This document shows, one piece after another, positions 22,765-39,363 of a DNA stretch of 40,218 bases (positions within the stretch are counted from its first letter, which is position 1; each line of letters begins with the position of its first letter). Below the pieces are notes generated by a model that had not been told where the DNA came from, searched no databases, and was given only the letters and a program-made list of their open reading frames with translations. The DNA is from Escherichia phage CLB_P1, in sequence record KC109329.1; one strand, written 5' to 3'. A program made the position numbers and the translations under genes.

Positions 22765-22806
22765 AAACCCCTTGGGTGCCTTCGGGTGCTTGAGGGGTTT
22801 TTTTTG
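22765..22806 (+). terminator. Intrinsic terminator after the capsid gene (T-phi equivalent)
   Basis: AAACCCCTTGGGTGCCTTCGGGTGCTTGAGGGGTTT hairpin followed by TTTTTTTT; closely resembles the T7 T-phi hairpin. Confidence 0.85.
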
Positions 22807-22820
22807 CTTAAGGAGGGCCT

Positions 22821-23387
22821 ATGGCTCAATACATTCCACTAAATGCTAACGATGACTTAGATGCCATCAACGATATGTTAGCTGCTATCGGTGAACCAGC
22901 AGTCCTACAGCTTGACGAAGGTAACGCTGACGTCTCGAACGCTCAACGTATCCTGCATCGTGTCAATCGTCAGGTCCAAGCTAAAGGCTGGAACTTTAAC
23001 ATCAACGAAGCTGCTGTCCTGACGCCTGATGTCCAAGACAACAGGATTCGATTCCTGCCGTCTTACCTTCGGGTCATGACTGCTGGTGCTACCAGTTACT
23101 ACAGCAACATGGGGGGCTATCTCTATGACCTGTCCACTCAGTCCACGACATTCACTGGACCAATTACAGTCGAACTGGTGGAGATGAAACCGTTCGCTGA
23201 GATGCCTGTAGTATTCCGTGACTACATCGTTACCAAGGCCAGCCGTGAGTTCAACGCTAAGTTCTTCGGTAGCCCAGAGTCTGAACTGTACCTTCGTGAG
23301 CAGGAAGCAGAACTCTATCAGCAGGTCATGGAATACGAGATGGACACTGGTCGCTACAACATGATGTCCGACATCGGGAGGGACTAA
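22821..23387 (+). CDS. Tail tubular protein A (T7 gene 11 homolog)
   Basis: A.NDILA.IGEP, NA.RIL...NRQ.Q..GW.FNI.E, GGY.YD...QS, VTKASR.FN..FFG.PE, MEYEMD.G.YNM as in T7 gp11. Confidence 0.9.
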   Translation: MAQYIPLNANDDLDAINDMLAAIGEPAVLQLDEGNADVSNAQRILHRVNRQVQAKGWNFNINEAAVLTPDVQDNRIRFLPSYLRVMTAGATSYYSNMGGYLYDLSTQSTTFTGPITVELVEMKPFAEMPVVFRDYIVTKASREFNAKFFGSPESELYLREQEAELYQQVMEYEMDTGRYNMMSDIGRD

Positions 23388-23614
23388 TGGCTAGTCACAA
23401 CCTGAAGATTCACCGCCGACACTTTGGCCCGGTACAACTAGGTCTAAAGACAGCAGAGCTGAGACTTAACGACCGGGACTTTAAGGTTGGCGACTGGCTT
23501 ATCCTGAATGAGTGGGACAACGGGTATACTGGACAACAGGTAGCGCGTAAGGTTATCCACATTGCTGACGTTGGTGACATCGCTGAAGGATACGTCCTAA
23601 TGAGTATGATTTAA
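23387..23614 (+). CDS. Hypothetical 75-aa protein between tail tubular genes A and B (possible ASCH/PUA-like small domain)
   Basis: ATG overlaps gp11 stop; no counterpart between T7 genes 11 and 12; domain guess is from general resemblance only. Confidence 0.5.
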   Translation: MASHNLKIHRRHFGPVQLGLKTAELRLNDRDFKVGDWLILNEWDNGYTGQQVARKVIHIADVGDIAEGYVLMSMI

Positions 23615-23623
23615 GGAGGGCCT

Positions 23624-25981
23624 ATGCCGCTTATCACACAAAGCATAAAAAATCTTAAGGGTGGCATTAGCCAACAGCCTGACATCCTGAGGTTCTCAGA
23701 CCAAGGCGAGGAGCAAGTTAACTGCTGGTCATCAGAGAGTGATGGCCTCCAGAAGCGTCCACCTACAGTCTTCAAGAGACGTCTTAACATCGACGTTGGG
23801 AGTAACCCTAAGTTCCACCTGATTAACCGTGACGAGCATGAGCAGTATTACATCGTGTTCAATGGGTCCAACATTCAGGTAGTTGACTTGAGTGGTAATC
23901 AATACTCAGTTTCCGGTGCGGTAGATTACGTTACGTCGTCCAACCCGAGAGATGACATCCGTGTCGTTACTGTGGCAGACTATACGTTCGTCGTTAACCG
24001 TAAGGTTGTCGTTAAAGGTGGAAGCGAGAAGTCACACTCTGGTTATAATCGTAAAGCTCGTGCTTTAATTAACCTGCGTGGTGGACAGTATGGTCGCACC
24101 CTTAAGGTAGGAATCAACGGAGGAGTTAAGGTTTCGCATAAGTTGCCAGCAGGTAATGATGCCGAGAATGACCCTCCTAAGGTTGATGCTCAGGCTATCG
24201 GTGCAGCTCTAAGAGACCTTCTTGTTGCTGCTTACCCTACCTTCACGTTCGACCTTGGGTCTGGCTTCCTGTTAATCACTGCCCCTTCAGGTACTGACAT
24301 TAACTCAGTGGAGACGGAGGATGGATACGCTAACCAGCTAATCAGCCCAGTCCTCGACACGGTGCAAACAATCTCTAAGTTGCCTCTTGCAGCTCCAAAT
24401 GGGTACATCATTAAGATTCAAGGTGAGACCAACAGTAGCGCCGATGAATACTACGTGATGTATGACTCCAACACTAAGACGTGGAAGGAGACAGTAGAGC
24501 CGGGAGTAGTCACTGGGTTCGATAACACCACAATGCCGCATGCTCTGGTGAGACAATCTGACGGCTCCTTTGAGTTCAAGACTCTGGACTGGTCTAAGCG
24601 TGGTGCTGGTAATGATGACACAAACCCTATGCCTAGCTTCGTGGATGCTACGATTAACGATGTGTTCTTCTACAGGAACAGGCTAGGTTTCTTGTCAGGC
24701 GAGAACGTAATCATGAGCCGTTCAGCCAGCTACTTTGCGTTCTTCCCTAAGAGTGTGGCGACACTGAGCGATGATGATCCTATTGACGTAGCTGTAAGTC
24801 ATCCTAGAATCTCAATCCTTAAGTATGCCGTTCCGTTTAGCGAGCAGCTACTACTTTGGTCGGATGAGGTGCAGTTCGTGATGACAAGCTCAGGGGTCCT
24901 TACCTCGAAGTCTATCCAGCTTGATGTAGGCTCAGAGTTTGCCTTAGGAGATAATGCCAGACCGTTCGCTGTAGGACGCTCAGTCTTCTTCTCAGCACCT
25001 CGTGGGTCATTCACCAGCATTAAGCGATACTTCGCTGTAGCAGATGTGTCTGACGTGAAGGATGCCGATGATACCACTGGTCACGTACTGTCCTATATCC
25101 CTAACGGGGTGTTTGACATTCAGGGAACAGGAACTGAGAACTACATCTGCGTCAACTCTACAGGTGCATACAACCGAATCTACATCTACAAGTTCTTGTT
25201 TAAGGACGGCGTACAGCTTCAAGCCTCTTGGTCGCACTGGGAGTTCCATAAAGACGATAAGATTCTGGCATCTGCGTCTATTGGCTCTACCATGTTCATC
25301 GTTCGTCAGCACCAAGGTGGCGTGGATATTGAGCACCTTAAGTTCATCAAGGAGGCAACTGACTTTACGTCAGAGCCATATAGACTCCACGTTGACTCCA
25401 AGGTGTCTATGGTTATCCCAATTGGCTCATATAACGCTGACACCTATAAGACTACGGTGGACATTGGTACTGCTTATGGCGGCAACGCTCCGTCTCCCGG
25501 TCGGTACTATCTGATTGACAGTCAGGGTGCTTATGTAGACCTTGGTGATCTGACTAGCACCTCCACTGTTGTTACCGTTAATGGCGATTGGTCAGGACGT
25601 ACAGTGTTCATCGGAAGGGCTTACCTGATGTCATACAAGTTCTCAAGGTTCCTTATTAAGATTGAAGATGATAGTGGAACTCAGTCTGAAGACACTGGTC
25701 GTCTACAGCTTCGTCGTGCTTGGGTAAACTACAAGGACACTGGTGCTCTTAGACTCATTGTCAGAAACGGTGAGAGGGAGTTCGTGAACACCTTCAACGG
25801 GTATACCCTTGGTCAGCAAACCATAGGCACTACCAACATTGGGGATGGTCAGTATCGCTTCGCTATGAATGGTAACGCATTAACCACGAGTCTAACCTTA
25901 GAGTCCGACTATCCTACCCCAGTGTACATCGTTGGATGTGGCTGGGAGGCTTCATACGCTAAGAAAGCTCGTTCCGTCTAA
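23624..25981 (+). CDS. Tail tubular protein B (T7 gene 12 homolog)
   Basis: 785 aa following gp11 with RBS AAGGAGG; length and position match T7 gp12. Confidence 0.92.
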   Translation: MPLITQSIKNLKGGISQQPDILRFSDQGEEQVNCWSSESDGLQKRPPTVFKRRLNIDVGSNPKFHLINRDEHEQYYIVFNGSNIQVVDLSGNQYSVSGAVDYVTSSNPRDDIRVVTVADYTFVVNRKVVVKGGSEKSHSGYNRKARALINLRGGQYGRTLKVGINGGVKVSHKLPAGNDAENDPPKVDAQAIGAALRDLLVAAYPTFTFDLGSGFLLITAPSGTDINSVETEDGYANQLISPVLDTVQTISKLPLAAPNGYIIKIQGETNSSADEYYVMYDSNTKTWKETVEPGVVTGFDNTTMPHALVRQSDGSFEFKTLDWSKRGAGNDDTNPMPSFVDATINDVFFYRNRLGFLSGENVIMSRSASYFAFFPKSVATLSDDDPIDVAVSHPRISILKYAVPFSEQLLLWSDEVQFVMTSSGVLTSKSIQLDVGSEFALGDNARPFAVGRSVFFSAPRGSFTSIKRYFAVADVSDVKDADDTTGHVLSYIPNGVFDIQGTGTENYICVNSTGAYNRIYIYKFLFKDGVQLQASWSHWEFHKDDKILASASIGSTMFIVRQHQGGVDIEHLKFIKEATDFTSEPYRLHVDSKVSMVIPIGSYNADTYKTTVDIGTAYGGNAPSPGRYYLIDSQGAYVDLGDLTSTSTVVTVNGDWSGRTVFIGRAYLMSYKFSRFLIKIEDDSGTQSEDTGRLQLRRAWVNYKDTGALRLIVRNGEREFVNTFNGYTLGQQTIGTTNIGDGQYRFAMNGNALTTSLTLESDYPTPVYIVGCGWEASYAKKARSV

Positions 25982-26005
25982 CTTATTGATTGGCCTATAG
26001 ATTCA

Positions 26006-26028
26006 CCTTAACTATCACTATAGGGACT
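26006..26028 (+). promoter_or_regulatory. Phage RNAP promoter (CCTTAACTATCACTATA/GGGACT)
   Basis: Consensus core; phi13 position. Confidence 0.65.
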
Positions 26029-26067
26029 ATAGGCCCTTTAAGTTATAATACTTTAAGAGGAGACTTT

Positions 26068-26538
26068 ATGTATATTCGTAAAGCTACGGAACCGGATGTC
26101 CACTACTTTCTGTGGCATCTTTCAGCAGATGATGTTAACGAATGCAAAGCAAACTACGGGTCAACCGTGGGTCTCTCTGAGAGACTGCTTAAGCATCTAT
26201 CTCCATCATCTGTGGTTTTAACGAACGGTGTAGGTGAAGTGTTTGCCTATGGTGGAAACCAAGGGGATAACGTATGGTTCTTGACTTCAGGTCTGGTCTA
26301 TAAGCTGAGACCTAAAGAGAAGCGAGAGTTCATAAAGTGTATCTCTGAGTACAGGGACTTAATGTTAGACCAATACGGGACCATCTGGAACTACGTGTGG
26401 TCAGGCAATAAGTCTCACATTAAATTCTTGAAGTTGCTTGGCGCTAAATTCCATGATGATTGGACTGTAAGCCCAGTAACTGGTGAGCGTTTTCAACTAT
26501 TCACTATCTCTAAGGAGGACGTATGTGCGAGCCAGTAA
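26068..26538 (+). CDS. Internal virion protein A-like (gene 13 position), 156 aa
   Basis: RBS AAGAGGAG before ATG at 26068; position between gene 12 and gp14. Confidence 0.55.
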   Translation: MYIRKATEPDVHYFLWHLSADDVNECKANYGSTVGLSERLLKHLSPSSVVLTNGVGEVFAYGGNQGDNVWFLTSGLVYKLRPKEKREFIKCISEYRDLMLDQYGTIWNYVWSGNKSHIKFLKLLGAKFHDDWTVSPVTGERFQLFTISKEDVCASQ

Positions 26539-27107
26539 GTATCGGCATGGGTATTATGGCTGTAGCTGGTGCCACTATGTCCGCATCCCAACAGGCCAAG
26601 GCTGAAGGAGCAGCAATTGACGCTCAGAACCGACAGGCTCAGGAAATGGTTAAGCAGATGAACTACTCTGACGCCAACCTGAGGATGCAGGAGCGAGACC
26701 TGAAGGAGCAGCAGATGGCTGAACTGACAGAGACCACGCTCAACGGTATCCGCAATCAGGGTATGGTCCGAGCTGCGGTGTCTGAGTCCGGTCTGGAAGG
26801 TAACTCTATGGACAGGATTGAACGTCAGGTCGCAGGAGATACAGTCAAGGAGCGAGCAGGGATTACCGAAAGTTACAACCGCGACTATGCGGCTATCTTC
26901 GGGAACCGTATCGCCAACATTGAGAACACCAAGTCTGCTATCCGTGGTCAAGGTAAAATCATCAAGACCAGCCCACTGGCTCATGCACTTAATGTTGCTA
27001 GTGCCGGGATGCAGGGATACGCTGCTGGTAAGTCAATCTCTGGGGCATCAAGCTCTGGTGCTGCACCGATTAGTGCTGCTAAAGGCACGCCTACAGGTCA
27101 TAGCTAA
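26523..27107 (+). CDS. Internal virion protein B (T7 gene 14 homolog)
   Basis: SQQAKAEG, QNRQAQEM, ESGLEGNSMDRIERQV, E.YNRDY.AIF as in T7 gp14. Confidence 0.85.
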   Translation: MCEPVSIGMGIMAVAGATMSASQQAKAEGAAIDAQNRQAQEMVKQMNYSDANLRMQERDLKEQQMAELTETTLNGIRNQGMVRAAVSESGLEGNSMDRIERQVAGDTVKERAGITESYNRDYAAIFGNRIANIENTKSAIRGQGKIIKTSPLAHALNVASAGMQGYAAGKSISGASSSGAAPISAAKGTPTGHS

Positions 27108-27118
27108 GAGGAGGACTA

Positions 27119-29401
27119 ATGGCTAGTAATATTGAATCAGCTCTGGCTAATCGGACTATGGGTCGTGGCAGAGCGCCGGGTAAAACTATCGCCGTCAACT
27201 ATCAAGCAGCCAGCGTTCAGGCTCAGACTGGTGACTCCGGTCTGGCTCGTGCGTTAACCAACTTCGTTGAGTCTGGGACTGGATTGTACAAGCAGTTCAA
27301 GGACGAGGAGAAGACACGGGCCGACGAGCGGTCTAACGAGATTATCCGTAAGCTGACACCTCAGCAAAGACGTGAGGCTATCCAGAACGGCACACTGCTG
27401 TATCAGGACGACCCTTACGCTATGGAAGCACTTCGAGTCAAGACAGGTCGTAACGCTGCCTTTGCAGTGGATGACGAGATTAACGTTAAGATTCAGAACG
27501 GTGAGTTCCGTACACGTCAGGAAATGGAAGAGTATCGCCACCAGCGACTTCAGGACGCCGCTAAGTCCTATGCTGAAGAGGCGGGTATTAACCCTACCGA
27601 TGAGTTCTTCCAGCGCGGGTTCAACGATAACATCACAGACCGCAACATCGCTATCTATGGGTCTTTCAATAAGTATTTCAGCAAGCAGTCTGAAGAGACA
27701 GCAATGTTGAACACTCGTATTGAGATGAACTCGTTCCTTAACGATGGGGACCTGATGCGTTCGCCTGAGTCTGGAAAGACCTTCATGGCCTACCTTCGGG
27801 ATGGGCTGACGACTGCTGCTATCCCTTCGGACCAGCGAGCACGAGAGGTCATCACCCAGACTGTCCGTGACGCAATCCAGAAGTCAGGAGGCTCAAACTT
27901 CCTACAGCAAGTCCGTGGCGAGCGTATCACCCTTAACGGCATTGATGCTACCATCGAAGAGATTGTAGGCCCTGACGTCTTCAATGCTGCTGTGGTTGAG
28001 GCTCAAGGTACTGAGTACAAGCTGGTGGCTAAGTATCAGGAAGACTTATCGTTAGGCGTTCAGTCTGCGATTCTTCAGGACGACCCAACCATCGGTCTGG
28101 CCCAGATTCAGAAACTCAAGGAGCAGAACAACCTGCTTCAACCGGGTGAAGAACTCACTCCCCAGCGTCAGATGCTCATTAACGCCGAAGCCACCTTACT
28201 AGAAGCGGTAAAACGTAAGTCTGCTGAACAGGCGAAGGAGAACACTAAGTTAATCCAGACCCAGAACAAGCAACTGGTCATTGACCAAGTGTATCAGCGA
28301 CGTCTGGCTGGGGACAACGTGTCCACCAACTATGAGGACCTTCCGGTCTCAGATGCTACAGGAGAGTTCAAGCGTTCGGACATGAACAACTATGCGTCTG
28401 CCAAGCTACAGCAGATTGACCAGATGGACATCCCTGAGGCCGCTAAAGACGCTCAGAAGGTGGCATTGTTAAGAGCTGACACTAACAACGGTCCTTTCCG
28501 TAATGCCTTCCAGACGCTGACTCAGGACGCTGCTGGTGAGTGGCAAGCTGCGGTCATCCGTGGGCAGTACGACCCAGACAAGATGCAACGCTTCGAATCT
28601 CTTCGTCGTGCCTACACTCAGGACCCTTCAAGTTTCGCTGCTCTGTATCCTGACCAAGCTCAGTTGTTCTCTACGTTCGACCAGATGGACAAGATGGGTC
28701 TGGACCCTCAGACGATGATTGAAGCTGATAAGCAAGCTGCAAGTCAAAGCCGTGAGATGCGAATGGAGTCAGACAAGGCGTGGCAGGAGTTGAAGAATGA
28801 CTCCAAGAACACCCAGTTGTCTCGCCTACCAACGTCTCTGGACGCAAGTGCTCGTAAGGTCTGGGACTCATGGTACTATCGTACAGGTAACGCTGACGCT
28901 GCAACGCAGCAGACTCAACGCTGGCTGAATGAGAACACCGTAACGTTCCAGTCTGAAGGTTCTGACGGTAAGTCAATCGGCATGGTGTCCAAGCACCAGC
29001 TTATGGTCGGGGATAACCCAGAGTCGTGGCAGGTGGGTCGAGACATTATCGACACAGCTCGTCAGCAACTCATTAAGGCCAACCCTTGGGTAGTGAACTC
29101 TCAGTTGTCCGTTGTTGAACAGAACGGCTCTATCTTCCTCCAAGACGCTACAGGTACTATTCGCATTCGCTACGATAAAGAACTTGTAGGTAAACTCTAC
29201 CGCGAACAACAGCAGAAGGCACAAGATGCCGCATATGCTCAGGCAGAACGTGACGCTAACAAGCGAGCGCGTATCGTCGGGACTAAAGCTGCTGGTGACA
29301 AACGTCGAGCTGACCGAGAGGCCAACATCGAGAAGCGCGGTGGGATGTACAATGACGTCTCACTGGAGGGTATCGCAAACGTACTAATCGGTAAGGAGTA
29401 A
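27119..29401 (+). CDS. Internal virion protein C (T7 gene 15 homolog)
   Basis: 760 aa, RBS AGAGGAGG; position and size match T7 gp15. Confidence 0.88.
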   Translation: MASNIESALANRTMGRGRAPGKTIAVNYQAASVQAQTGDSGLARALTNFVESGTGLYKQFKDEEKTRADERSNEIIRKLTPQQRREAIQNGTLLYQDDPYAMEALRVKTGRNAAFAVDDEINVKIQNGEFRTRQEMEEYRHQRLQDAAKSYAEEAGINPTDEFFQRGFNDNITDRNIAIYGSFNKYFSKQSEETAMLNTRIEMNSFLNDGDLMRSPESGKTFMAYLRDGLTTAAIPSDQRAREVITQTVRDAIQKSGGSNFLQQVRGERITLNGIDATIEEIVGPDVFNAAVVEAQGTEYKLVAKYQEDLSLGVQSAILQDDPTIGLAQIQKLKEQNNLLQPGEELTPQRQMLINAEATLLEAVKRKSAEQAKENTKLIQTQNKQLVIDQVYQRRLAGDNVSTNYEDLPVSDATGEFKRSDMNNYASAKLQQIDQMDIPEAAKDAQKVALLRADTNNGPFRNAFQTLTQDAAGEWQAAVIRGQYDPDKMQRFESLRRAYTQDPSSFAALYPDQAQLFSTFDQMDKMGLDPQTMIEADKQAASQSREMRMESDKAWQELKNDSKNTQLSRLPTSLDASARKVWDSWYYRTGNADAATQQTQRWLNENTVTFQSEGSDGKSIGMVSKHQLMVGDNPESWQVGRDIIDTARQQLIKANPWVVNSQLSVVEQNGSIFLQDATGTIRIRYDKELVGKLYREQQQKAQDAAYAQAERDANKRARIVGTKAAGDKRRADREANIEKRGGMYNDVSLEGIANVLIGKE

Positions 29402-29405
29402 CATA

Positions 29406-32400
29406 ATGGCGACTCGTGGTATTCGCAATAACAATCCGGGTAACATCCGGGTAAGTAAGGACCAATGGGAAGGAATGACTGGAGATGATGGCGCATTCGT
29501 CACCTTCGATAGTCCAGAGTCTGGCGTCCGAGCTTTAGGTAAAAACCTGCTGTCCTACGGTCGCCAAGGTTATGATTCCATCGAGAAGATTATCAACAGA
29601 TGGGCACCTCCTAACGAGAACGACACTAAGGCTTATATTGACTCAGTGGTGGCTGCAACTGGTATTCCAGCTACACAGAGTCTCGACCTATCGGACCCTG
29701 ACACCCTGTCTTCTCTGGCACAAGCTATCAGCTTCCATGAGACAGGCTCACGGTACGACCCTGAAGTCTATCAGAAGGGAGTCGCACGGGCACTCAACGG
29801 CATTAGCCCAAAGACTCCACCAGTAAGCGCTAACGTATTTGACGCACTCACGGAAGGATTAAAGTCGAAACCTAAAGTATCTCTGGGTGAGAACCTTCCG
29901 ACCGCTGCTGGTTTGAACATTGAGGGTCAAGCACCTGAAGCTCCCAACGAATCGTTCGGTGAGATGTTCTATAAGGCTACTGGAGAGACCATGCAGGAGC
30001 GAGAGGAGCGCTCTACGTGGTTCGGTTTTGGTTCTGCTACAGAAGCTGAAGTGAAGAACTCTATGGTAGGCGTGGCTATCCGCGCTGGTCAGACTGAGGA
30101 CTCACTGGATGTCATTGGCGACGTGTTCAACCCGACCCGATGGAACAACCACAAGTGGTCCCGCGAGGAGTTAGACCAGATTCGTAACGCTGGGGTCCTG
30201 CCTCAGTATTACGGGGTTATCACTGGCGGCTCCCCTCAGAACCTGACCGAGCTGATTAACTTGGCGCTGGAGAACCAGAAGTTAGACGCTGAGAAGTCTA
30301 AGGCCGGGACTGGCGCTCAACTGGCTGCTGGTGTAATTGGTGCTGGTGTGGACCCTCTAACCTACGTTCCTATCGCTGGACAGGTAGGCAAAGGTGGTAA
30401 GCTCGTCAACAAGATGTTCACCGTGGCTGCTCAATCTGGCGCTCTGGCTGGTGCCTCTGAGTTGGCTCGCACCTCAGTTGCTGGTGGTGATGCTTATGTG
30501 GCTGAGGCTATTATGGGTGGCGCTCTCTTCGGTGGCGGGATGACTGCTATCGGCGATGCTATCGGCAAGGCCCTCGGTAAGTCTACCAATGAGTTCGCTG
30601 GCCCAGCTACACGTCTGGAAGCCCGCGAGACCGCTCGTAACGTTGATGGGCAGGACCTGTCTCGCCTACCTATTCAGGAAGGTGAGCAGACCTTTAGTCA
30701 CCAAGGCGTTAAGTTCGCTGACGTGCCGAATGAGCCGGGAAGTGTACGACTGGAAGATGGCTCAATCCTGATTGGTGAGAACCCTCTGAACCCTAAGACA
30801 CGTCAAGTCTTTGACGAAGTGATTGAGCCGGAACGTGCCGCTGCTGGTGTGAACCTTGGTGGACTTACCGAGATTGGCCTGAAGCTGCTTCGGTCTGAGA
30901 ACCCTGAGATTCGTGGAGTAGCTGCTGACTTAGTGCGTTCACCGACTGGTATGCAGTCTGGGGCCTCAGGTAAAATCGGGACCACTGCGTCTGACGTATT
31001 CGAGAGACTTCGTGCTGTAGACCATCGGTTCTACAACGACATCGACGATGCGGTTACTGAGGCGCTCAAAGACCCATACTTCCAGACAGCATTCTGGCGA
31101 GACTCTGGAGCATTCCGTCAGGACATCTACCAGCGCGTGTCTATGGCTATCGAAGATGGTAGCGGAAACCTGAAGTCTGAACTGACTCCGGGAGAACTGA
31201 AAGTCTATGACCTACTGAAGAACCAGTTTGACGCCAAGCGTGAGATGATGGAGAACCCAGCTATGTTTGGTCGGCCAGACGCTCAGTCTATCTTTCCGGG
31301 TAGCCGCTTCAAGGGAACCTACGTCCCTCATGTGTATAGCAAACAGATGAAGGAGCTGTACATCAAGGAGCTTGGGAGTCCAGAGGCACTACAGGAGGCC
31401 ATCAAGAAGTCATGGCTTACCAGCTATGCGTCTCGACCTGAAGTCAAGAAACGCGTGGACGAGGCACTCTTAGAGGCTGACCCTACGTTGACTCCAGAGG
31501 GACTTGCTGCTGCGGTCGATAAGTACGCCAATGATAAGGCTTACGGTATCTCTCACACCGAGCAGTTCGAACGCTCCTCCGTAATGGAAGAGAACATCAA
31601 CGGTCTTGTGGGTCTGGAGAACAACAGCTTCCTTGAGGCTCGTAACCTGTTTGATAGCGATATGTCAATCGTTCTGCCGAACGGTCAGACCTTCAGTGTC
31701 AACAATCTGCGTGAGTGGGACATGGATAAGATTGTCCCTGCTTATAACCGTCGAGTTAATGGTGACATTGCTATCATGGCTGGTACAGGGAAGACTACGA
31801 AGGAAATGAAGGATTTAGTTGAGACCATGATGAACAAGGCTGGGGATGACGGTAAGTTGAAAGGTGAGGTATCGACCTTACGTGACACCTTGAAGATTCT
31901 CACTGGTCGTGCTCGACGTGATGGGGCTGATGATGCAGCCTTCGCTACAGTGATGCGCACAATGACAGACCTATCGTTCTTCGCTAAGAATGCCTACATG
32001 GGTGTTCAGAACTTAACGGAGATTGGTGGTATGCTGGCCCGTGGTAACGTTCGTGCGCTGCTGCATGGAGTCCCTATTTTCCGTGACCTAGCCTTCCGTA
32101 ACAAGAAGGTAGGGGCCTCAGAGATTAAGGACCTGCACAATGTTATCTTCGGTAAGGAACTTGATGACTCAATCCGTCCGTCTAAACAGGATGTCATCGA
32201 CCGACTACGAGCTTACAGCGCCTTGAGTAAACCTACGGCTACGGCTTTAGGCTCTGCCAAGTATTACACTGGTGAACTTGCCGTACGCTCTCCGTTCACT
32301 AAAGTCCTCAACGGTACGACCAACTACCTGTTAGATGCTGGACGTCAAGGCTTCCTGTCTGACATCGTGGAGCATAGCCTGACTGGTAGTAAGCGTAAGT

Positions 32401-33293
32401 TCGATGACCGATGGCTGAAGACCGCTGGTATCTCTGACGAGCAGTGGAATGGAATTAAGTCCCTAATCCGTGAGTCAGTGACTCGTGGTCCAGACGGGAA
32501 GTATACCATCAAGGATAAGAAGGCGTTCAGTCAGGACCCAAGGGCTATGGACCTGTGGCGTATGGGCGACACCATCGCTGACGAAACGTTACTCCGTCCT
32601 CATAAGCTGAGCAACATGGACGCCAAGGCTTATGGTCCTCTGGCTAAGACTGTCCTTCAGTTTAAGAACTTCGTCATCAAGTCCATCAATGGGCGTACCA
32701 TGCGAACCTTCTATAACGCCACGAAGAACAACCGAGCGATGGATGCTGCTCTGTCCACTGTGATGTCTATGGGTCTTGCTGGTATCTACTACATGGCTCA
32801 GGCACACATCAAGGCTTACGCTATGCAGGATGGTCGTGACCGTGAGTACCTGAAGCAGGCCCTGAACCCTACGATGATTGGCTATGCCGCTCTGTCCCGT
32901 AGCTCCCACTTGGGTGGACCACTTGGGGTCGCTAACATTCTTGGTGGTATCGCTGGGTATGAGGACACTAAGATGCTCCGTTCATCTATCCTGCCCCGTT
33001 CGCCTACAGAGAAGCCTGAACGTGCCATCGCGTATGGTGCAGCTACAAGTGACCCTGTGATGAATGTTGTTGGTAACTTCTTGGAGCAGGTTCCAGCTTT
33101 CGGATATGCTGCTAACGTTGGCGCTTCGGCTTACAACTTGGCTGGCTACCTCAAGGCTGATACTCGTGTCAACGAGCGTGACTACATGACCGGGATGTAT
33201 AATACGTTCCGTGAACTGGTTCCGAACGACCCAATTACCCAGAAGCTGTTGCTTGGAACGTTTGAGGAGCAAGGTATCCACATCAAGGACTAA
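29406..33293 (+). CDS. Internal virion protein D (T7 gene 16 homolog) with a non-canonical N-terminal ~195-aa domain
   Basis: From about residue 200 aligns with T7 gp16 (STWFGFG..EAE, PTRWN.H.W..EEL, GVDPL.YVP, RLEARETARN, SPTGMQSGASGK, YGISH..QF, GLVG.ENNSFLEARNLFDSD, GNVRAL, RSPFTK.LNGTTNYLLDA); the N-terminus lacks the lytic-transglycosylase motif recalled for T7. Confidence 0.9.
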   Translation: MATRGIRNNNPGNIRVSKDQWEGMTGDDGAFVTFDSPESGVRALGKNLLSYGRQGYDSIEKIINRWAPPNENDTKAYIDSVVAATGIPATQSLDLSDPDTLSSLAQAISFHETGSRYDPEVYQKGVARALNGISPKTPPVSANVFDALTEGLKSKPKVSLGENLPTAAGLNIEGQAPEAPNESFGEMFYKATGETMQEREERSTWFGFGSATEAEVKNSMVGVAIRAGQTEDSLDVIGDVFNPTRWNNHKWSREELDQIRNAGVLPQYYGVITGGSPQNLTELINLALENQKLDAEKSKAGTGAQLAAGVIGAGVDPLTYVPIAGQVGKGGKLVNKMFTVAAQSGALAGASELARTSVAGGDAYVAEAIMGGALFGGGMTAIGDAIGKALGKSTNEFAGPATRLEARETARNVDGQDLSRLPIQEGEQTFSHQGVKFADVPNEPGSVRLEDGSILIGENPLNPKTRQVFDEVIEPERAAAGVNLGGLTEIGLKLLRSENPEIRGVAADLVRSPTGMQSGASGKIGTTASDVFERLRAVDHRFYNDIDDAVTEALKDPYFQTAFWRDSGAFRQDIYQRVSMAIEDGSGNLKSELTPGELKVYDLLKNQFDAKREMMENPAMFGRPDAQSIFPGSRFKGTYVPHVYSKQMKELYIKELGSPEALQEAIKKSWLTSYASRPEVKKRVDEALLEADPTLTPEGLAAAVDKYANDKAYGISHTEQFERSSVMEENINGLVGLENNSFLEARNLFDSDMSIVLPNGQTFSVNNLREWDMDKIVPAYNRRVNGDIAIMAGTGKTTKEMKDLVETMMNKAGDDGKLKGEVSTLRDTLKILTGRARRDGADDAAFATVMRTMTDLSFFAKNAYMGVQNLTEIGGMLARGNVRALLHGVPIFRDLAFRNKKVGASEIKDLHNVIFGKELDDSIRPSKQDVIDRLRAYSALSKPTATALGSAKYYTGELAVRSPFTKVLNGTTNYLLDAGRQGFLSDIVEHSLTGSKRKFDDRWLKTAGISDEQWNGIKSLIRESVTRGPDGKYTIKDKKAFSQDPRAMDLWRMGDTIADETLLRPHKLSNMDAKAYGPLAKTVLQFKNFVIKSINGRTMRTFYNATKNNRAMDAALSTVMSMGLAGIYYMAQAHIKAYAMQDGRDREYLKQALNPTMIGYAALSRSSHLGGPLGVANILGGIAGYEDTKMLRSSILPRSPTEKPERAIAYGAATSDPVMNVVGNFLEQVPAFGYAANVGASAYNLAGYLKADTRVNERDYMTGMYNTFRELVPNDPITQKLLLGTFEEQGIHIKD

Positions 33294-33311
33294 ACTATCA
33301 CTATAGGAAAC
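33289..33311 (+). promoter_or_regulatory. Phage RNAP promoter (ACTAAACTATCACTATA/GGAAAC)
   Basis: Consensus core; phi17 position upstream of the tail fiber gene. Confidence 0.65.
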
Positions 33312-33357
33312 GGGAGGCGCTACCATAGGTCTCCATTTAAATCACAAAGGAGGCATA

Positions 33358-34335
33358 ATGTCCACGATTACACAATTCCCTTCAGGAAACACTCAGTACA
33401 GGATTGAGTTCGACTACCTAGCCAGAACGTTTGTTGTTGTTACGCTGGTGAATAGCTCTAACCCTACCCTTAACCGTGTACTGGAAGTTGGTCGAGATTA
33501 CCGATTCCTTAATCCAACGATGATTGAGATGTTGGTTGACCAATCAGGTTTCGACATCGTTCGTATTCACCGTCAGACTGGAACTGACTTAGTGGTAGAC
33601 TTCAGGAATGGCTCAGTGTTGACAGCTAGCGACCTGACCAATGCAGAGCTTCAGGCTATCCATATTGCAGAAGAAGGTCGAGACCAAACGGTTGACTTAG
33701 CGAAGGAATATGCCGATGCTGCTGGTGACTCTGCTGGCAACGCTAAGGATAGCGAGGACGAAGCACGACGAATCGCTGAGAGTATCAAGGCAGCTGGTCG
33801 AATTGGCTATATTACCCGTCGCTCCTTCGAGAAAGGCTTCAACGTTACAACATGGAACGAGGTCCTGTTATGGGAAGAGGATGGTGAGTATTACCGCTGG
33901 GATGGTACGCTTCCAAAGAACGTTCCTGCTGGTTCAACTCCTAACACCGCTGGGGGCATTGGTTTAGGTGCGTGGGTTGGCGTTGGTGATGCATCATTGC
34001 GCAGCAATTTATCAGAAAATGATGGCGCCTTGATAGTAGGTGGAGCTATTCTTGAATGCCAAACGGTAGCACAGGCGCAAGAGATATCTGGTTTAACGGA
34101 AGGTCGAAAGGTAAGAACATACTATTATAATGTCCCAGTTGTAACAGATTGGGTGTTCACCCCCACCGCGCCGTCCGGTGGGGTTTTCTACATTCCCGCT
34201 GTCGGTGGTTACTTGATATTAATGACGCCTAACTTCGCTTCCGCTGGCATTATTGAAGGTGAATATGTTCCGCTAAACGCCGCACATAACCGTAATGTAA
34301 TTCAAAAAACTGGTAAGAGACACAAGATTCAGTAA
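33358..34335 (+). CDS. Tail fiber protein, conserved N-terminal tail-attachment domain with divergent, shorter C-terminal part (325 aa)
   Basis: N-terminal ~150 aa align with T7 gp17 (F.YLAR.FVVVTL, DYRF, LVDF..GS.L.A.DL, H.AEE.RD); remainder unlike T7 and lower GC from about 34000. Confidence 0.85.
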
Positions 34336-34337
34336 AT

Positions 34338-35636
34338 TTGAATATGGAGCAACAGGTTACTTTTTATGTTCTCGGCTCTATTCATCCATTACGAGATAAT
34401 ATAGAAATACACCACGAAGCTGGGGTTACAGTTATGGGGCGTTACGATGACCCCACGGTAGGTCCAGAAATTATGGGGTTAAACTCCGGCGGTATGTGGT
34501 CCTTTGCACACTTTCTCAACCCTGATGCAACGGTTTGGGATGACAATAACTACACAATTACAGCTGTTATGAAAAATGTTACCTACGTTCTTAACGGAAA
34601 GATAGGTACAGAATATAACTCCATTCATTCTAAACCGCACAACAACAACCCTATTGGTTTCTTTACTTGTGAAAACTGTAGCGTTGTCGGCTCTGGCGGG
34701 GTTATTGGGTCTGACCACCGAGGCATTAACGTAGATGGTGCAGGGGATAATTGCCGTATAGATATCGGGTACGCTACAGGAACCAGCAACAACCCGATTC
34801 AAATGAAAATAAACGCTGAACGCTACGCTTTTGTTAAAGTTGGTGCGGTCTATGGGGTTAAGTTTGATGGCGGTCAAACAAAGGCTGTGGTGTGGTGCGG
34901 CGGTGGGCGTGTTGATGTAGAAGTCGGTAACTACAGGTGGGATGGGGTGAATAAACCAATCCTCGCTTACGGCAACGGTTGCCAGGAAATAACTTTAAAG
35001 GCTGGCATAATATCCGGCGTTTCGCAATTAATACGTCAGTACAATACCCCTGTAGCTAGAGTTCTGTCAGCATGGGTTAATAATACAGACTCTCTCATAA
35101 ACAAAGCAGAAGATTCTGACAAGGAAGGTGTGACCAAGATTTCTGAGATTCGAGGTGTGAACGCCGTCGACACGGTACTAACTAGCGCATTCTATGATGA
35201 AACGAAATTAGCGAATCAAGATGTTGTTACTATAACCGGAAACGATTTCAGAAACGCTGGACCATCATTCCTTTACTTTAAAGGTAAAACAGCTGGTGGT
35301 GCTATTAGGTTGTGGAACGTTAATAACAACCTCGACCCTGTAGGTCTTGCGGACCTTTCAGACTGGAATATTTTGCTGGGGCAAAGTGTCGTTACTACAG
35401 TTTCAGCAACTTCTTTCACGTACACTATGTCCCGTAGATATGAAAATATCACAATTGCCGTAACGGAATCCGCCACCCTACGGTATGTTACGGTTAGCTT
35501 ACGAGCGCACCTGTCGTCGTCAACTACGGCGTCATACATAGTCGGCGGCACGTCTATGACTGTCTCGAGGTCCGGCGATATTTTTACTTTTACGGTTAAC
35601 TCCGGAACTATAAATTTTTACGTATTACATAACTAA
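34338..35636 (+). CDS. Putative separate tailspike / receptor-binding protein (432 aa) in a low-GC module
   Basis: Long ORF directly after the short tail fiber gene; Gly/Asn/Val/Thr-rich; visibly AT-richer than the genome; own terminator. Start may be the ATG at 34344. Confidence 0.55.
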   Translation: MNMEQQVTFYVLGSIHPLRDNIEIHHEAGVTVMGRYDDPTVGPEIMGLNSGGMWSFAHFLNPDATVWDDNNYTITAVMKNVTYVLNGKIGTEYNSIHSKPHNNNPIGFFTCENCSVVGSGGVIGSDHRGINVDGAGDNCRIDIGYATGTSNNPIQMKINAERYAFVKVGAVYGVKFDGGQTKAVVWCGGGRVDVEVGNYRWDGVNKPILAYGNGCQEITLKAGIISGVSQLIRQYNTPVARVLSAWVNNTDSLINKAEDSDKEGVTKISEIRGVNAVDTVLTSAFYDETKLANQDVVTITGNDFRNAGPSFLYFKGKTAGGAIRLWNVNNNLDPVGLADLSDWNILLGQSVVTTVSATSFTYTMSRRYENITIAVTESATLRYVTVSLRAHLSSSTTASYIVGGTSMTVSRSGDIFTFTVNSGTINFYVLHN

Positions 35637-35643
35637 AAAACAA

Positions 35644-35674
35644 AACCCCGCTTCGGTGGGGTTAGTTTATCATC
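35644..35674 (+). terminator. Intrinsic terminator closing the tail fiber/tailspike module
   Basis: ACCCCGC-TTCG-GTGGGGT stem-loop (UUCG tetraloop) followed by a U-rich tract. Confidence 0.6.
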
Positions 35675-35786
35675 AGAAGGGGGTATTGAATCATCGAAGG
35701 TTGTGGAGGTAGAGGCTAACTACACGCTGACCAACGTATGGTAACAACTTTGGGTCACGGACGACCCGCTTTAAACTGGAGGTTTT

Positions 35787-35981
35787 ATGATTGAGTTAGA
35801 CTTCAAGAATGAGGTCCTTAAAGCCTCTCCTATCGTCGGGACCGCTGCGGCTGATGGTGCCAGTCGGTTCTTCTTCGGACTTACACTGAACGAATGGTTC
35901 TACGTTGCAGCTATCGCGTACACCGTTGTCCAGATTGGTGTGCTAGTCTACAAAACGATTAAAGGAGGAGGTAAAACATGA
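35787..35981 (+). CDS. Class II holin (T7 gene 17.5 homolog)
   Basis: LDF.NE..KA.PIVGT...D...R.FFGL.LNEWFYVAAIAYTVVQIG as in T7 gp17.5. Confidence 0.85.
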   Translation: MIELDFKNEVLKASPIVGTAAADGASRFFFGLTLNEWFYVAAIAYTVVQIGVLVYKTIKGGGKT

Positions 35982-36241
35982 CGCAGATGGACTTAGAGAA
36001 GTTCCTCTTAATGCTAGATACTGAACGTGCTCGACTCATGCTGCAAGACCTGCGGGATGACTCTAAGCGTTCACCTCAGCTTTACAACGCCATTGAGAAG
36101 CTACTGGCTCGTCACAACTTCGTGCTAAGCAAGGTGTCTGTTGACGAGAAGACGCTCGCTGATATGGAGGCCCTGAACGCAGAGTACGATAAGGTGCTCT
36201 CCGCTACGGAAGATAATGACACTGGGTATGGAGTGCAATAA
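35978..36241 (+). CDS. Terminase small subunit (T7 gene 18 homolog)
   Basis: F..MLDT, RSPQLYNAI.KLL.RH.F as in T7 gp18. Confidence 0.85.
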   Translation: MTQMDLEKFLLMLDTERARLMLQDLRDDSKRSPQLYNAIEKLLARHNFVLSKVSVDEKTLADMEALNAEYDKVLSATEDNDTGYGVQ

Positions 36242-36253
36242 ATCTCTTAAGTG

Positions 36254-36298
36254 TTAGACTCAAGGTCATTACTGTATGTAGTGGCCTTTATGGTTAAC
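36254..36298 (+). promoter_or_regulatory. Conserved stem-loop, candidate RNase III processing site (R18.5-like)
   Basis: AGACTCAAGGTCAT-loop-GTGGCCTTTATGGTTA; third copy of the motif. Confidence 0.4.
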
Positions 36299-36351
36299 AC
36301 TAACTAGTGGAGGAGACTCTACGTGAAATCTGATAAACCGGGAGGGCACCT

Positions 36352-36804
36352 ATGCTCGAATTTCTAAAGAGAGCGGCTCCGTGGTTACTCGCAGCAGTGA
36401 TGTTTGCTGGGGGCTACCACACCGCTAACAATAAGTGGGAGGCTAAGGTCAATGCAGAATACACCTCGAATCTTAAGGCATCGGAGGATACAAGGCTTGC
36501 TGTCCAAGCTGAAGTCAACAAAGTGTCCAAACGGTTTCAGGACGAAATGTCCTCGCTGGAAGGCAGCACTGATAGGATTATTGCTGACCTTCAGTCTGAC
36601 AATAAGCGGTTGCGCATCCGAGTCAAACCTACGAGTGGAACCACGCAAAGTGACGGTCGATGCGTCATTGATGGTTACGCCGAACTTGACGAACGAGATG
36701 CTAAACGTCTTATCGCCATCGGACTGAAAGGGGACTCTTGGATTAAAGCACTACAGGATACTATTCGAAAACTTCAACAAGACAAGGAGAAAGACAATGG
36801 GTAA
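36352..36804 (+). CDS. Rz-like i-spanin (T7 gene 18.5 homolog)
   Basis: MLEFL, EGSTDRII.DL.SDNKRLR.RVK, DGRAELD.RDAKR, GD.WI.ALQDTIR.LQ as in T7 gp18.5. Confidence 0.88.
   Translation: MLEFLKRAAPWLLAAVMFAGGYHTANNKWEAKVNAEYTSNLKASEDTRLAVQAEVNKVSKRFQDEMSSLEGSTDRIIADLQSDNKRLRIRVKPTSGTTQSDGRCVIDGYAELDERDAKRLIAIGLKGDSWIKALQDTIRKLQQDKEKDNG
36452..36727 (+). CDS. Rz1-like o-spanin lipoprotein embedded in the +1 frame of the Rz-like gene (gene 18.7 homolog)
   Basis: PRWK.ALIGL.L....TISGCASES (lipobox ISGC) and SLMV.PNLT.EMLNV as in T7 gp18.7; start ATG at 36452 inferred. Confidence 0.65.
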   Translation: MQNTPRILRHRRIQGLLSKLKSTKCPNGFRTKCPRWKAALIGLLLTFSLTISGCASESNLRVEPRKVTVDASLMVTPNLTNEMLNVLSPSD

Positions 36805-37588
36805 TATTATTACTTTGAAAACTGACGTAGTTTGGCATTTTGCTACTGGTACACCCTCTGGACTGAAGAACGCATCCGGTCACTTGTTATCTGGTACAAT
36901 ATACGTGAAAGTCCCAGCTAACGCCGAGTCTACAAGGATTACACTAAGCGACGGTACGTCTGCTACTGGTAATTTCTCCGATGGTGGCGGCTGGCCTCTA
37001 CAATCAGGCAGTGTACGTCTGGAAGTGGTTGGTAACACAGAAGACGACTTCCTTATTCTTAAAGTCACCAAGCTGAATGACAGTGGCGTCGGACTTGTTA
37101 AGGTAGAGTATACTTATCGGGAGTCACGTCCTGTATCCCACGCTGAGTATTCTCTGGATACCTTCAACTGGTCAGGAACCCAAGTGTGTGCGGCTGGTCA
37201 GTTCACTAACCTAATGACTCTACCTTTAGTGAAGGGAGTGGATAGCGGCGTCGTTACTATCTCCGAAGGAAAGATGCTGTTCCCAGCTAAAGAGGGACTC
37301 AGTAGTGTAAACTTCGTCGTTCGGTTCGCTGGTGAGTTCCCTACAGCCTCAGCTCATAAGTGGCGATTGCAGCTTCGTAGACCAGATAACACTACCCTAT
37401 CTTCCGTGACGGACACAGATGACCAGCAGTCATTCACCATTCGTGAGGCAGCCATCCATAGCTACATAGCTAATACAGACGACCCGTTCGTTACTACTGG
37501 CATCATGCTTGGCATTGAAGTTACCGGGTCTGAGGACCTTACTCTGTCCTCCCTGACTGTTCGCGTTGACTGCATCTTTAACTCTTAA
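36797..37588 (+). CDS. Hypothetical protein of unknown function (263 aa) between the spanin genes and terminase large subunit
   Basis: ATG overlaps the spanin stop (ATGGGTAA); long uninterrupted ORF with genome-typical composition; no recognised motif and no T7 counterpart at this position. Confidence 0.6.
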
Positions 37589-37599
37589 GAGGTGAAGCA

Positions 37600-39363
37600 T
37601 TGAGTAAAGACTTAGTGGCGCGTCAGGCGCTAATGACTGCACGTATGAAGGCAGACTTCGTGTTCTTCCTGTTCGTCCTGTGGAAAGCTCTGTCACTCCC
37701 AGTCCCGACTCGCTGTCAGATTGACATGGCGAAGAAACTATCGGCTGGGGACAACAGGCGCTTCATCCTACAGGCGTTCCGTGGTATAGGGAAGTCCTTC
37801 ATTACGTGTGCCTTCGTTGTCTGGAAGCTATGGAACAACCCAGACTTGAAGTTCATGATTGTGTCTGCCTCAAAGGAACGAGCCGATGCTAACTCCATCT
37901 TCATCAAGCGTATCATCGACCTCATGCCTCAGCTTCGGGAACTCAAACCTAAGCAGGGACAGCGAGATGCGGTTATCAGCTTCGACGTTGGACCAGCCAA
38001 GCCAGACCACTCACCTTCGGTTAAGTCAGTTGGTATCACAGGTCAGTTGACTGGTAGTCGTGCTGACATCTTGATTGCCGATGACGTAGAGGTTCCGAAC
38101 AACTCAGCGACTCAGGCTGCACGAGACCGTCTGTCAGAGCTTGTGAAAGAGTTCGACGCTATCCTGAAGCCGGGAGGTACAATCATCTATCTGGGTACTC
38201 CTCAGAACGAGATGACCTTGTATCGTGAGCTGGAAGGCCGTGGGTACACCACTACTATCTGGCCTGCTCGTTATCCACGCGACAGGAAGGACTGGCAGTC
38301 TTACGGCGACCGTCTGGCACCGATGCTTCAGGCAGAGCTTGAAGAGGACCCTGAGGCCTTCTACTGGCGTCCGACCGATGAAGTTCGCTTCGACGATACT
38401 GACCTGAAGGAACGTGAGCTGTCCTATGGTAAAGCTGGCTTCGCTCTACAGTTCATGCTTAACCCGAACCTGAGTGATGCCGAGAAGTACCCTCTGAAGC
38501 TCCGTGACCTTATCGTAGCAGACTTGGACCCAGCATCCAGCCCAATGGTCTACCAATGGTTGCCTAACCCTCAGAACAAGCGTGAGGACGTTCCTAACGT
38601 TGGACTCATGGGCGACTCATACCACACGTACCAGACTGTAGGTTCTGCCTTCAGTTCGTACACCCAGAAGATTCTGGTCATTGACCCTAGCGGTCGTGGT
38701 AAGGATGAAACTGGTTATGCGGTACTGTATCAGCTCAACGGCTACATCTTCGCTATGGAAGTCGGAGGTATGCGTGGTGGTTATGAAGACTCTACTCTGG
38801 AAGCGCTAGCTAAGATTGGTCGTAAGTGGAAGGTCAACGAATACGTCATTGAGGGTAACTTCGGTGATGGTATGTACCTTGAGCTATTCAAGCCTGTAGC
38901 GGCCCGTATCCATCCTGCGGCTGTAACTGAAGTGAAGAGTAAGGGTCAGAAAGAACTCCGCATCTGTGACGTTCTGGAGCCTATCATGGGGTCTCACAGA
39001 CTTATCGTCAACGCTGCTGCTATCGTCCAAGACTATCAGACAGCCGCTGATAAGGATGGTGTTCGTAACCCTATCTACTCTCTCTTCTACCAGATGACAC
39101 GTATCTCTCGTGAACGCGGAGCCTTGGCACACGATGACCGACTTGATGCGCTGGCTATCGGTGTACAGTTCTTCGTTGAGTCTATGGCTAAGGATGCCAA
39201 CAAAGGCGAACGTGAAGTCACTGAGGAGTGGCTGGAGGAACAGATGGAGAACCCACGGAAAGGCTTCGAGTCCATCCACACTGAGTTCTGGGACAATGGG
39301 GTCCGGGTAACTCACAATACGGACGACGAGCTGGGACTAGGGGCTTACGTTACGTTCCACTAG
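37600..39363 (+). CDS. Terminase large subunit (T7 gene 19 homolog), probable TTG start
   Basis: Walker A-like [16 protein letters not shown], nuclease-domain region; 587 aa like T7 gp19; GAGGTGA RBS 5 nt before TTG at 37600, no RBS before the first in-frame ATG. Confidence 0.93.

Follow-up and report, generated by a model that had tools for sequence, protein, structure and literature searches.

Organisation of gene 17

The window, by which we mean the whole 40,218-nt stretch of DNA analysed here (KC109329.1), contains a 263-aa ORF that matches AGD81082.1 of Escherichia phage CLB_P1 exactly. CLB_P1 is a Kayfunavirus that was isolated on E. coli 55989 (O104:H4), infects clones of the 2011 outbreak and targets O104. 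As written in the window, the anchor and the receptor-binding domain of its tailspike are divided between two ORFs in different reading frames, while in OZ035730.1, ECO104 4-5-2 and P0047 they form one polypeptide. The initial annotation had reported ORFs of 325 aa and 432 aa here, and both exist at those coordinates. Taken together, positions 33358-35636 would constitute a single gene 17 encoding the 758-aa modular tailspike of CLB_P1. The features of the locus are as follows.

33358-35636, plus strand: gene 17 tailspike, a single 758-aa ORF after removal of an A from 34304-34309 and a T from 34357-34358
33358-34335, plus strand: ORF1, 325 aa, exact match to AGD81076.1, annotated as tail fiber
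34338-35636 from a TTG (432 aa) or 34344-35636 from an ATG (430 aa), plus strand: ORF2, exact match to AGD81077.1, annotated as hypothetical protein
33385-33720, plus strand: T7 gp17-type N-terminal tail-attachment domain, aa 10-121 (Pfam PF03906, Phage_T7_tail, E = 1.8e-16)
33808-33990, plus strand: Tail_spike_N domain (TSP1/Gp66-type), aa 151-211 (Pfam PF18668, E = 1.1e-19), where conservation of the anchor ends, and the presumed left flank for recombination
34026-35636, plus strand: acquired low-GC receptor-binding module of the O104 type, fused aa about 224-758
34304-34309, plus strand: A6 run, one A more than in every homologue (A5); first frameshift, giving the 8-aa out-of-frame tail TGKRHKIQ and a stop at 34333-34335
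34310-34356, plus strand: stretch whose true frame neither annotated ORF uses; 16 residues (fused aa 318-333), stop-free in that frame by three-frame translation
34357-34358, plus strand: TT, a single T in every homologue; second +1 insertion, placing the remainder of the gene in the third frame
34719, plus strand: third and last difference from OZ035730.1, synonymous (CGA in the window versus AGA, both Arg); the window base is common to all other homologues
35640-35700, plus strand: conserved post-tailspike motif with the hairpin AACCCCGC-TTCG-GTGGGGTT (35644-35663), right cassette flank and putative terminator

The conserved front of the protein (aa 1 to about 213), with the T7 gp17-type domain followed by the TSP1/Gp66-type N-domain, would fix the trimer to the tail. 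The match to PF03906 at aa 10-121 bears out the T7-like N-terminus proposed in the initial annotation, and this region has ~95% nucleotide identity with its counterparts in over 150 Kayfunavirus and related records. The Tail_spike_N flank corresponds to motif 1/2 described in PMC10408124.

Two extra bases separate the ORFs

Comparing the whole window with OZ035730.1 ("Kayfunavirus CLBP1") gave three differing positions, all of them in gene 17. Two are 1-nt insertions specific to the window, spaced 49 nt apart, and the remaining one is the synonymous substitution. From the name of OZ035730.1 and the methods of a preprint, rather than from a statement in the record, we infer that it is an Illumina re-sequencing of the same stock. 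The insertion-free gene is one ORF both there and in the independent O104:H4 phage ECO104 4-5-2 (95.5% DNA identity). A5 and a single T are also what each of the six homologous DNAs examined has, two of them from podophages, one from a siphovirus-type source and three from prophages, and searches of IMG/VR returned one match for the A5 string and none for the A6 string. The fused 758-aa protein comes from a 40216-nt re-sequenced genome (P0044; NCBI and Logan) and from another ~40-kb contig (P0047; Logan), and the split proteins are confined to one GenBank record. In most of 40 homologues a single chain runs through the module past the site of the break, no full-length protein homologue is interrupted there, and a search for the split layout among relatives (OZ035730.1, ECO104 4-5-2, P0047 and the homologues) found it in none. 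Contamination by, or recombination with, the 55989 prophage spike (88% identical) was considered as the source of the three differences and, for the insertions, ruled out: that spike also has A5 and a single T and therefore cannot have supplied them.

The break (aa 317/334) lies inside the conserved module, the anchor/module boundary being at about aa 214-225. Among the 16 residues lost, R221 and G228 are invariant and L216, D219, F222, F225 and G231 nearly so (P0002 numbering, which is fused minus 102), and the last 8 residues of ORF1 and the first 7 of ORF2 are out of frame relative to homologues. In the structural model, the break is found at the C-terminal end of helix 203-218, just ahead of the first beta-helix strands, with a local pLDDT of ~95. 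It is thus near a sub-domain junction (neck and helix versus beta-helix) and not mid-strand. When we sought a Shine-Dalgarno sequence before ORF2 by duplex energy none was found, the two ORF2 starts giving −2.7 and −0.7 kcal/mol compared to −7.1 to −13.4 kcal/mol at every annotated late-gene start from 18751 to 37600.

On this evidence, the 325-aa "fiber" and the 432-aa "spike" are very probably halves of one gene and not a biological architecture, the extra bases most likely being base-calling or assembly errors in the original deposit. Error, rather than mutation, is the most likely origin of the insertions.

The receptor-binding module

In a monomer model, the module is predicted to open with a small neck domain of beta structure, to pass through a helix (aa 305-320) into a right-handed beta-helix (~aa 326-647) and to end in a C-terminal beta domain (~aa 651-758). 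The right-handed parallel beta-helix that marks a gp17-type tailspike is therefore present in the model, in line with the initial annotation, which had suggested looking for this fold by structure prediction. Family searches with the 432-aa ORF gave nothing above threshold in Pfam and PHROGs and nothing in NCBIfam, and a PDB sequence search with the module gave no match, so that the fold had to come from the model. A search of the module for a Pfam catalytic family likewise found none. A sub-threshold Pfam match to GT29 sialyltransferases (E = 0.017-0.034) was considered because O104 contains sialic acid, and was rejected as homology because the region is a beta-helix.

Within the phage collection, the module (34026-35636) occurs only in CLB_P1 and one independent O104:H4 phage. 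The host of ECO104 4-5-2 is given in its record as O104:H4. In the homology search against other phages that the initial annotation had called for, the module DNA matched the tailspike of a siphovirus-type contig at 92.6% identity and the tailspikes of P22-like prophages at 86.6%. The module is found on anchors of three kinds: T7-type, P22 head-binding and siphovirus. A search of 5,426 complete E. coli genomes gave 24 matches; 21 of them were prophage spikes of ~88% identity, many of these from strains with O104:H4 in their names and others from 55989 and HUSEC2011.

Fused aa 214-758 share 78% identity, over 546 aa, with aa 114-659 of the O104:H4 prophage spike. With this same prophage segment an R-type pyocin was redirected against O104 and K9 strains, a result that shows specificity only (PMC3303846). 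An RBP has been assigned to the O104 subtype when it has at least 30% identity and at least 60% RBD coverage to an RBP of validated O104 specificity (PMC10408124), which places the CLB_P1 module in that subtype. The module would recognise the O104 O-antigen of host 55989, which is identical to the K9 capsule repeat, and probably also cleaves this polysaccharide. Candidate acidic residues were drawn solely from invariant columns.

Composition and boundaries of the low-GC block

The initial annotation had described an AT-rich block with distinct codon choice from ~34000, and this is upheld on quantitative analysis. The GC content of 34000-35640 is 44.2%, in the lowest 0.1% of all windows of the same size, and that of 34026-35636 is 44.4%, against 50.05% for the genome. 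The maximal-scoring low-GC segment genome-wide is 34209-35822, with a score of 12.6 compared to a maximum of 10.4 over 200 base shuffles. GC3 of the module (0.416) is below that of every other gene (33 other ORFs of at least 80 aa: mean 0.549, sd 0.056, minimum 0.449). The anchor part of gene 17 is likewise low in GC3 (0.45), and the step in composition is for this reason softer than the step in homology. Homology to the Kayfunavirus backbone is lost after 34025 and regained at 35701, in close agreement with the limits given in the initial annotation, and the left junctions against all three partners lie within 34024-34036.

Downstream, the initial annotation had placed a strong hairpin terminator at 35644-35674. 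A hairpin is indeed found at 35644-35663, with 8 bp and a UUCG loop, but its strength as a terminator does not hold up, the tail AGTTTATCAT being a weak U-tract and the fold z-score only −2.3. Nor does genome-typical composition return directly after it, as had been claimed: GC content stays at 47.6-48.5% over 35701-37588 and exceeds 50% again only at the terminase gene. By blastn the post-tailspike motif is 80-92% identical in 175 phage records from many genera, directly after tailspike genes, and is the counterpart of "motif three" of PMC10408124. Within the comparison loci, exact or nearly exact copies of the hairpin were looked for and found in CLB_P1 alone.

Recombination in conserved flanks would carry the module from one phage type to another. 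Upstream the flank is where the anchor-coding region ends, downstream it is the ~60-nt hairpin-containing motif, and we infer that recombination took place at both. The proposal of a host-range cassette swapped by recombination is thus sustained, with the module on three anchors, junctions within 34024-34036 and close copies mainly in strains named O104:H4. The evidence from composition and homology supports the low-GC block being a horizontally acquired host-range module that would bind the O104 antigen.

Alternative explanations for the split

A sequencing error is not the only way to account for two extra bases. They could be real mutations in the stock sequenced around 2012, leaving a broken tailspike gene (a defective or minority variant, or a passage artefact) while the functional phage was intact. 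No position outside gene 17 distinguishes the window from the re-sequenced genome, slippage in homopolymeric A-runs is a common genuine mutation, and position 34719 resembles a genuine between-stock substitution since the window base is common to all relatives. We nevertheless consider such mutations unlikely. That mutation should add a base twice, independently, at sites 49 nt apart and nowhere else in 40 kb is improbable, the second insertion does not restore the frame and is therefore not a suppressor, and the later genome is ancestral exactly at both sites. Moreover, growth on a smooth O104 host would not be expected of a phage that lacks its sole receptor-binding protein. There is a very small chance that the extra bases are genuine and the phage still infects O104 cells, building its spike from a truncated anchor with the neck and a beta-helix protein re-initiated 9 nt past the stop. 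If true, this would be a naturally split tailspike, and the neck/beta-helix junction would tolerate breakage of the chain.

Programmed recoding, by ribosomal frameshifting or by transcriptional slippage at the A-run, might in principle allow the sequence as it stands to produce a full-length spike alongside a short fiber. The capsid gene of T7-like phages is expressed with programmed frameshifting, and the first shift site here is an A6 run. However, A6 is too short for efficient slippage by RNA polymerase, and the relatives have a plain in-frame gene. Two successive +1 shifts would be required, the second at GGTTAC, which is not slippery. Programmed frameshifting was rejected on the grounds that two +1 events are needed, one of them at a non-slippery site, and we regard recoding of either kind as having next to no chance of being correct.

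The initial annotation had favoured an adaptor-like short fiber with a separate docking tailspike. A genuine two-protein system of this kind, in which a truncated gp17 adapter carries a separately translated 430-aa beta-helix protein that docks on it, has also been put forward independently in PMC10408124, where the published analysis took the split as an adapter system. Both ORFs are present in the record, and the ATG of ORF2 is 9 nt past the stop of ORF1, a gap at which ribosomes might conceivably re-initiate. The break lies near the point where the beta-helix begins, and adapter systems occur in K1-5/SP6/K1E and KP34 (cited in PMC10408124). Among the homologues, P0013 (538 aa) consists of the module only. 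Yet P0013 begins at the module boundary and not at the CLB_P1 break, and the experimentally functional unit (aa 114-659 of the prophage spike) crosses the break. Division at this point would leave 16 conserved residues in neither protein, with 8 out-of-frame residues ending ORF1 and 7 beginning ORF2. The split is missing from the re-sequenced genome and every relative, and ORF2 has no Shine-Dalgarno sequence ahead of it. We therefore think it very improbable that two docking proteins exist, and drop the earlier proposal in view of the two record-specific insertions, the ORF2 start lacking a Shine-Dalgarno sequence and the unsplit relatives.

Since the split is gone in the re-sequenced genome and in all relatives, the fused 758-aa sequence should be used. 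The useful result is a correction, and the adapter reading of the 2023 paper should be amended. Those affected include users of the O104 spike for engineering or expression, host-range predictors trained on RBP architecture and counts of adapter systems.

Comparison with known systems

The CLB_P1 RBP has already been listed as O104-specific (PMC10408124; Virol J 2023;20:174), and the same paper describes horizontal RBP transfer among Kayfuna-, Kaguna-, Lederberg- and Uetakeviruses as well as conserved motifs on both sides of the RBD, among them one of 20 nt that resembles a terminator. The cassette is an ordinary case of tailspike module exchange and is already known. Where that paper treats the CLB_P1 split as a real adapter architecture, the present comparison attributes it to two extra bases.

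The closest counterparts by genome position are the single-chain gp17 tailspikes of other Kayfunaviruses (K1F endosialidase and the tail proteins of Baskent_phicoli_1, 718 aa, and P762, 712 aa). These share their N-terminal ~215 aa with CLB_P1 (~95% nucleotide identity; T7-type domain and PF18668), followed by a swapped C-terminal receptor-binding part. Compared to them, the CLB_P1 gene is interrupted in this record, reading through as one ORF when the two extra bases are left out, and its C-terminal module is of the O104 subtype, in contrast to the endosialidase of the K1F type.

By receptor-binding segment, the counterpart is the P22-like prophage tailspike of O104:H4 strains (EGR74047 / WP_000129924.1 / WP_000129896.1, 659 aa), which was used for the AvR2-O104 pyocin. 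It is 78% identical to CLB_P1 over the whole segment and nearly identical over about aa 280-620, and is also low in GC (about 40%). Its C-terminal ~130 aa have diverged from CLB_P1, and its anchor is a P22 head-binding domain (PF09008) rather than the T7 gp17 N-domain. The gene resides in a temperate prophage, where it adjoins an O-antigen acyltransferase.

The adapter or branched RBP systems (K1-5/SP6/K1E gp37, KP34 and KP32 gp37/gp38) resemble CLB_P1 in their annotation pattern, a short N-terminal anchor followed by a separate beta-helix protein. In these systems, however, every protein comes from a complete gene that has its own start, the boundary falls between domains and the layout is kept in relatives. 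In CLB_P1 we found none of the three, neither a separate translation start, nor a break at the anchor/RBD boundary, nor an arrangement conserved in relatives; the two ORFs instead meet at a double frameshift within the module, which a single record shows.

Two extra bases divide the tailspike gene in the CLB_P1 record

The T7-like phage CLB_P1 was obtained on the enteroaggregative O104:H4 E. coli strain 55989 and also infects the 2011 outbreak clones (PMC3594211). The O104 O-antigen is cited in the literature as its target, and its receptor-binding protein (RBP) is listed as O104-specific (PMC10408124). The window comprises an entire T7-like genome that belongs to the genus Kayfunavirus. Two open reading frames lie at the coordinates reported in the initial annotation, and their reading frames differ. 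By protein database match, ORF1 (33358-34335, 325 aa) is identical to AGD81076.1 (tail fiber protein, CLB_P1) and ORF2 (34338-35636), in its 430-aa form, to AGD81077.1 (hypothetical protein CLBP1_17.1). ORF1 carries the proposed T7-like N-terminal domain (Pfam Phage_T7_tail, aa 10-121) and a second anchor domain, Tail_spike_N (PF18668, aa 151-211). More than 150 Kayfunavirus and related records match the gene only over its first ~640 nt.

The circularly permuted, near-identical genome OZ035730.1 ('Kayfunavirus CLBP1', 40216 nt) was probably assembled with SPAdes from Illumina reads of material in the same laboratory's collection. Whole-genome comparison with the window gave three differing positions in 40.2 kb.

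Positions at which the window and OZ035730.1 differ
34304-34309: extra A (window A6, OZ035730.1 A5)
34357-34358: extra T (window GGTTAC, OZ035730.1 GGTAC)
34719: synonymous C/A (window CGA, OZ035730.1 AGA), Arg454 codon, adjoining the invariant S-D-H motif

Lacking both extra bases, OZ035730.1 has a single 758-aa ORF, whose numbering is used below as fused numbering. ECO104 4-5-2, an independent phage from O104:H4 (contig 95.5% identical to the window, 53 mismatches), also has one ORF as far as its contig reaches. Its assembly is broken within the tailspike gene (OR844748.1, OR844708.1), one contig stopping at window-equivalent 34579 and the next beginning at 34878; one possible cause is that phage reads were mixed up with the prophage spike present in the O104:H4 host, which is 88% identical. 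A5 and the single T occur in all six homologous DNAs compared; three of these are P22-like prophages, one of them from host 55989, and the others are re-sequenced CLB_P1, ECO104 4-5-2 and a siphovirus-type contig. At the sole substitution, 34719, the window has the base of all homologues, and it is therefore the re-sequenced genome that bears the change. The third frame between the insertions has no stop and reads through 17 residues. Thus ORF1 is authentic up to K317 and continues for 8 out-of-frame residues, ORF2 becomes authentic at T334 after 7 out-of-frame residues, and residues 318-333 are in neither. Fused 758-aa proteins appear in the protein database in two versions, one found in NCBI and a Logan read assembly (P0044) and one from another contig of ~40 kb (P0047); the split forms are confined to the single GenBank record. 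A string search of IMG/VR gave no match for the A6 string and one for A5.

We consider it very probable that the window holds a single gene with an error in the record, since two non-compensating +1 insertions lie 49 nt apart while the rest of the genome has none, both sites are ancestral in the later genome, and a phage lacking its sole RBP would not be expected to grow on a smooth host. The same three points argue against real inactivating mutations in the sequenced stock, which we regard as improbable. The initial annotation had proposed a short fiber serving as adapter for a separate spike, and an adapter reading of the split also appears in PMC10408124. However, every testable defining feature of such a functional two-protein system (independent start, domain-boundary split, conservation in relatives) fails, making it very unlikely. 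Relatives have one ORF, and the break lies inside the module (fused aa ~224-758). Shine-Dalgarno pairing was absent at the two candidate ORF2 starts (−2.7 and −0.7 kcal/mol), compared with −7.1 to −13.4 kcal/mol for all annotated late-gene starts from 18751 to 37600. The two-protein arrangement is very probably an artefact; recoding we give hardly any credence. The main value of the single-gene reading is the correction of the GenBank record and of one published statement.

Fold and specificity of the module

Searching with fused aa 215-755 found 40 proteins, most of which span the module nearly fully as one chain, on anchors of the P22 head-binding (PF09008), PF18668 and a third kind. One homologue (P0013, 538 aa) begins at the module boundary and carries only the module behind a short N-terminal peptide, without a recognised anchor; it may be a genuine free-standing receptor-binding domain of some phage or result from a gene call that is truncated. 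Genomic contexts include a P22-like prophage, with an O-antigen acyltransferase and integrase nearby, and a contig encoding tail assembly chaperones plus a 769-aa long tail protein, which make up a siphovirus-type tail.

No sequence-level family or solved structure matched the module in Pfam, PHROGs, NCBIfam or a PDB sequence search. An AlphaFold2 model of a 90% identical homologue (P0002; 33-sequence alignment, mean pLDDT 86.4) runs from a small beta domain through a helix (203-218) and a long beta-strand run to a C-terminal beta domain. Foldseek matched it at probability 1.0 to CBA120 TSP2-4, HK620, Sf6 and Klebsiella depolymerases, bearing out the beta-helix that the initial annotation had suggested looking for; from this fold, polysaccharide cleavage is a putative activity. 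As P0002 numbering is fused numbering minus 102, the break maps to where the helix ends on its C-terminal side, and the segment leading into the first beta-helix strand is lost. Model pLDDT is ~95 here, and R221 and G228 are invariant and L216, D219, F222, F225 and G231 nearly so (P0002 numbering).

A sub-threshold Pfam match to GT29 sialyltransferase (~34635-34739, fused aa 426-460; E = 0.017-0.034; 14-15 bits against a cut-off of 23) is present in both the CLB_P1 and O104:H4 prophage spikes. The profile stretch matched presumably resembles the sialyl L motif, and sialic acid is part of the O104 repeat. Since the region folds as a beta-helix, we reject GT29 homology as probably a chance match.

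O104:H4 strain 2011C-3493 has a 659-aa prophage tailspike whose residues 114-659 are 78% identical to fused aa 214-758, the two being almost the same from ~aa 280 to 620. Scholl et al. made a fusion of the R2 pyocin fiber with exactly aa 114-659 (or 118-659) of this O104:H4 prophage spike; it killed only O104 strains and one O9:K9 strain, and resistance mapped to O-antigen loss (PMC3303846). The unit that works in this experiment therefore extends across the break. Module matches occur in 24 of 5,426 complete E. coli genomes; 21 are ~88% identical, many of them in strains named O104:H4, plus 55989 and HUSEC2011.

Boundaries of the cassette

The low GC content noted initially is confirmed: 34000-35640 has 44.2% GC versus 50.05% for the genome (lowest 0.1% of same-size windows), and the top-scoring low-GC segment genome-wide, 34209-35822, exceeds 200 of 200 shuffles. 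Module GC3 is 0.416, whereas none of the other ORFs with 80 aa or more goes below 0.449 (mean 0.549). Composition does not return to typical values immediately after the hairpin as had been stated, since GC of 47.6-48.5% persists up to the terminase gene. The proposed terminator holds as a hairpin (35644-35663, 8 bp, UUCG loop), but its U-tail is weak and its stability modestly above shuffles.

The backbone alignment with Baskent_phicoli_1 ends at 34025 and restarts at 35701, and alignments start at 34024 for a P22-like prophage (86.6% DNA identity) and 34036 for the siphovirus-type contig (92.6%). Three unrelated partners therefore have one left junction in common, within 12 nt. These homology boundaries agree with the composition shift.

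A second variable locus lies further downstream.

Second variable locus
36797-37588, + strand: 263-aa ORF, between an Rz-like gene (36352-36804) and the large terminase (37600-39363)

This ORF is identical to AGD81082.1 of CLB_P1, belongs to PHROG 17779 (function unknown) and is absent from Baskent_phicoli_1 and ECO104 4-5-2; its 'putative protease' label is without support, with no Pfam or NCBIfam match. Providencia phage EPr2 (49%) and Kayfunavirus P762 (87%), whose gp17 differs, carry full-length homologues at this position. For the C-terminal half (~aa 118-262), identity is ~34% to proteins from 41-74-kb phages that infect Salmonella, Aeromonas and E. coli.

The ~60 nt past the tailspike stop codon, hairpin included, have counterparts of 80-92% identity in 175 phage records, where they lie directly after tailspike genes. 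Among these records are siphoviruses, other Kayfunaviruses and phages of 72 kb and 157 kb, and one labels the motif a terminator. Composition, homology limits, the three partners and flank motifs thus bear out the initial observation and its cassette reading. Among the motifs of PMC10408124, the hairpin flank has its counterpart in the 20-nt 'motif three', which follows RBP genes, and the anchor end in motifs one and two, so that the cassette picture is supported and already published.
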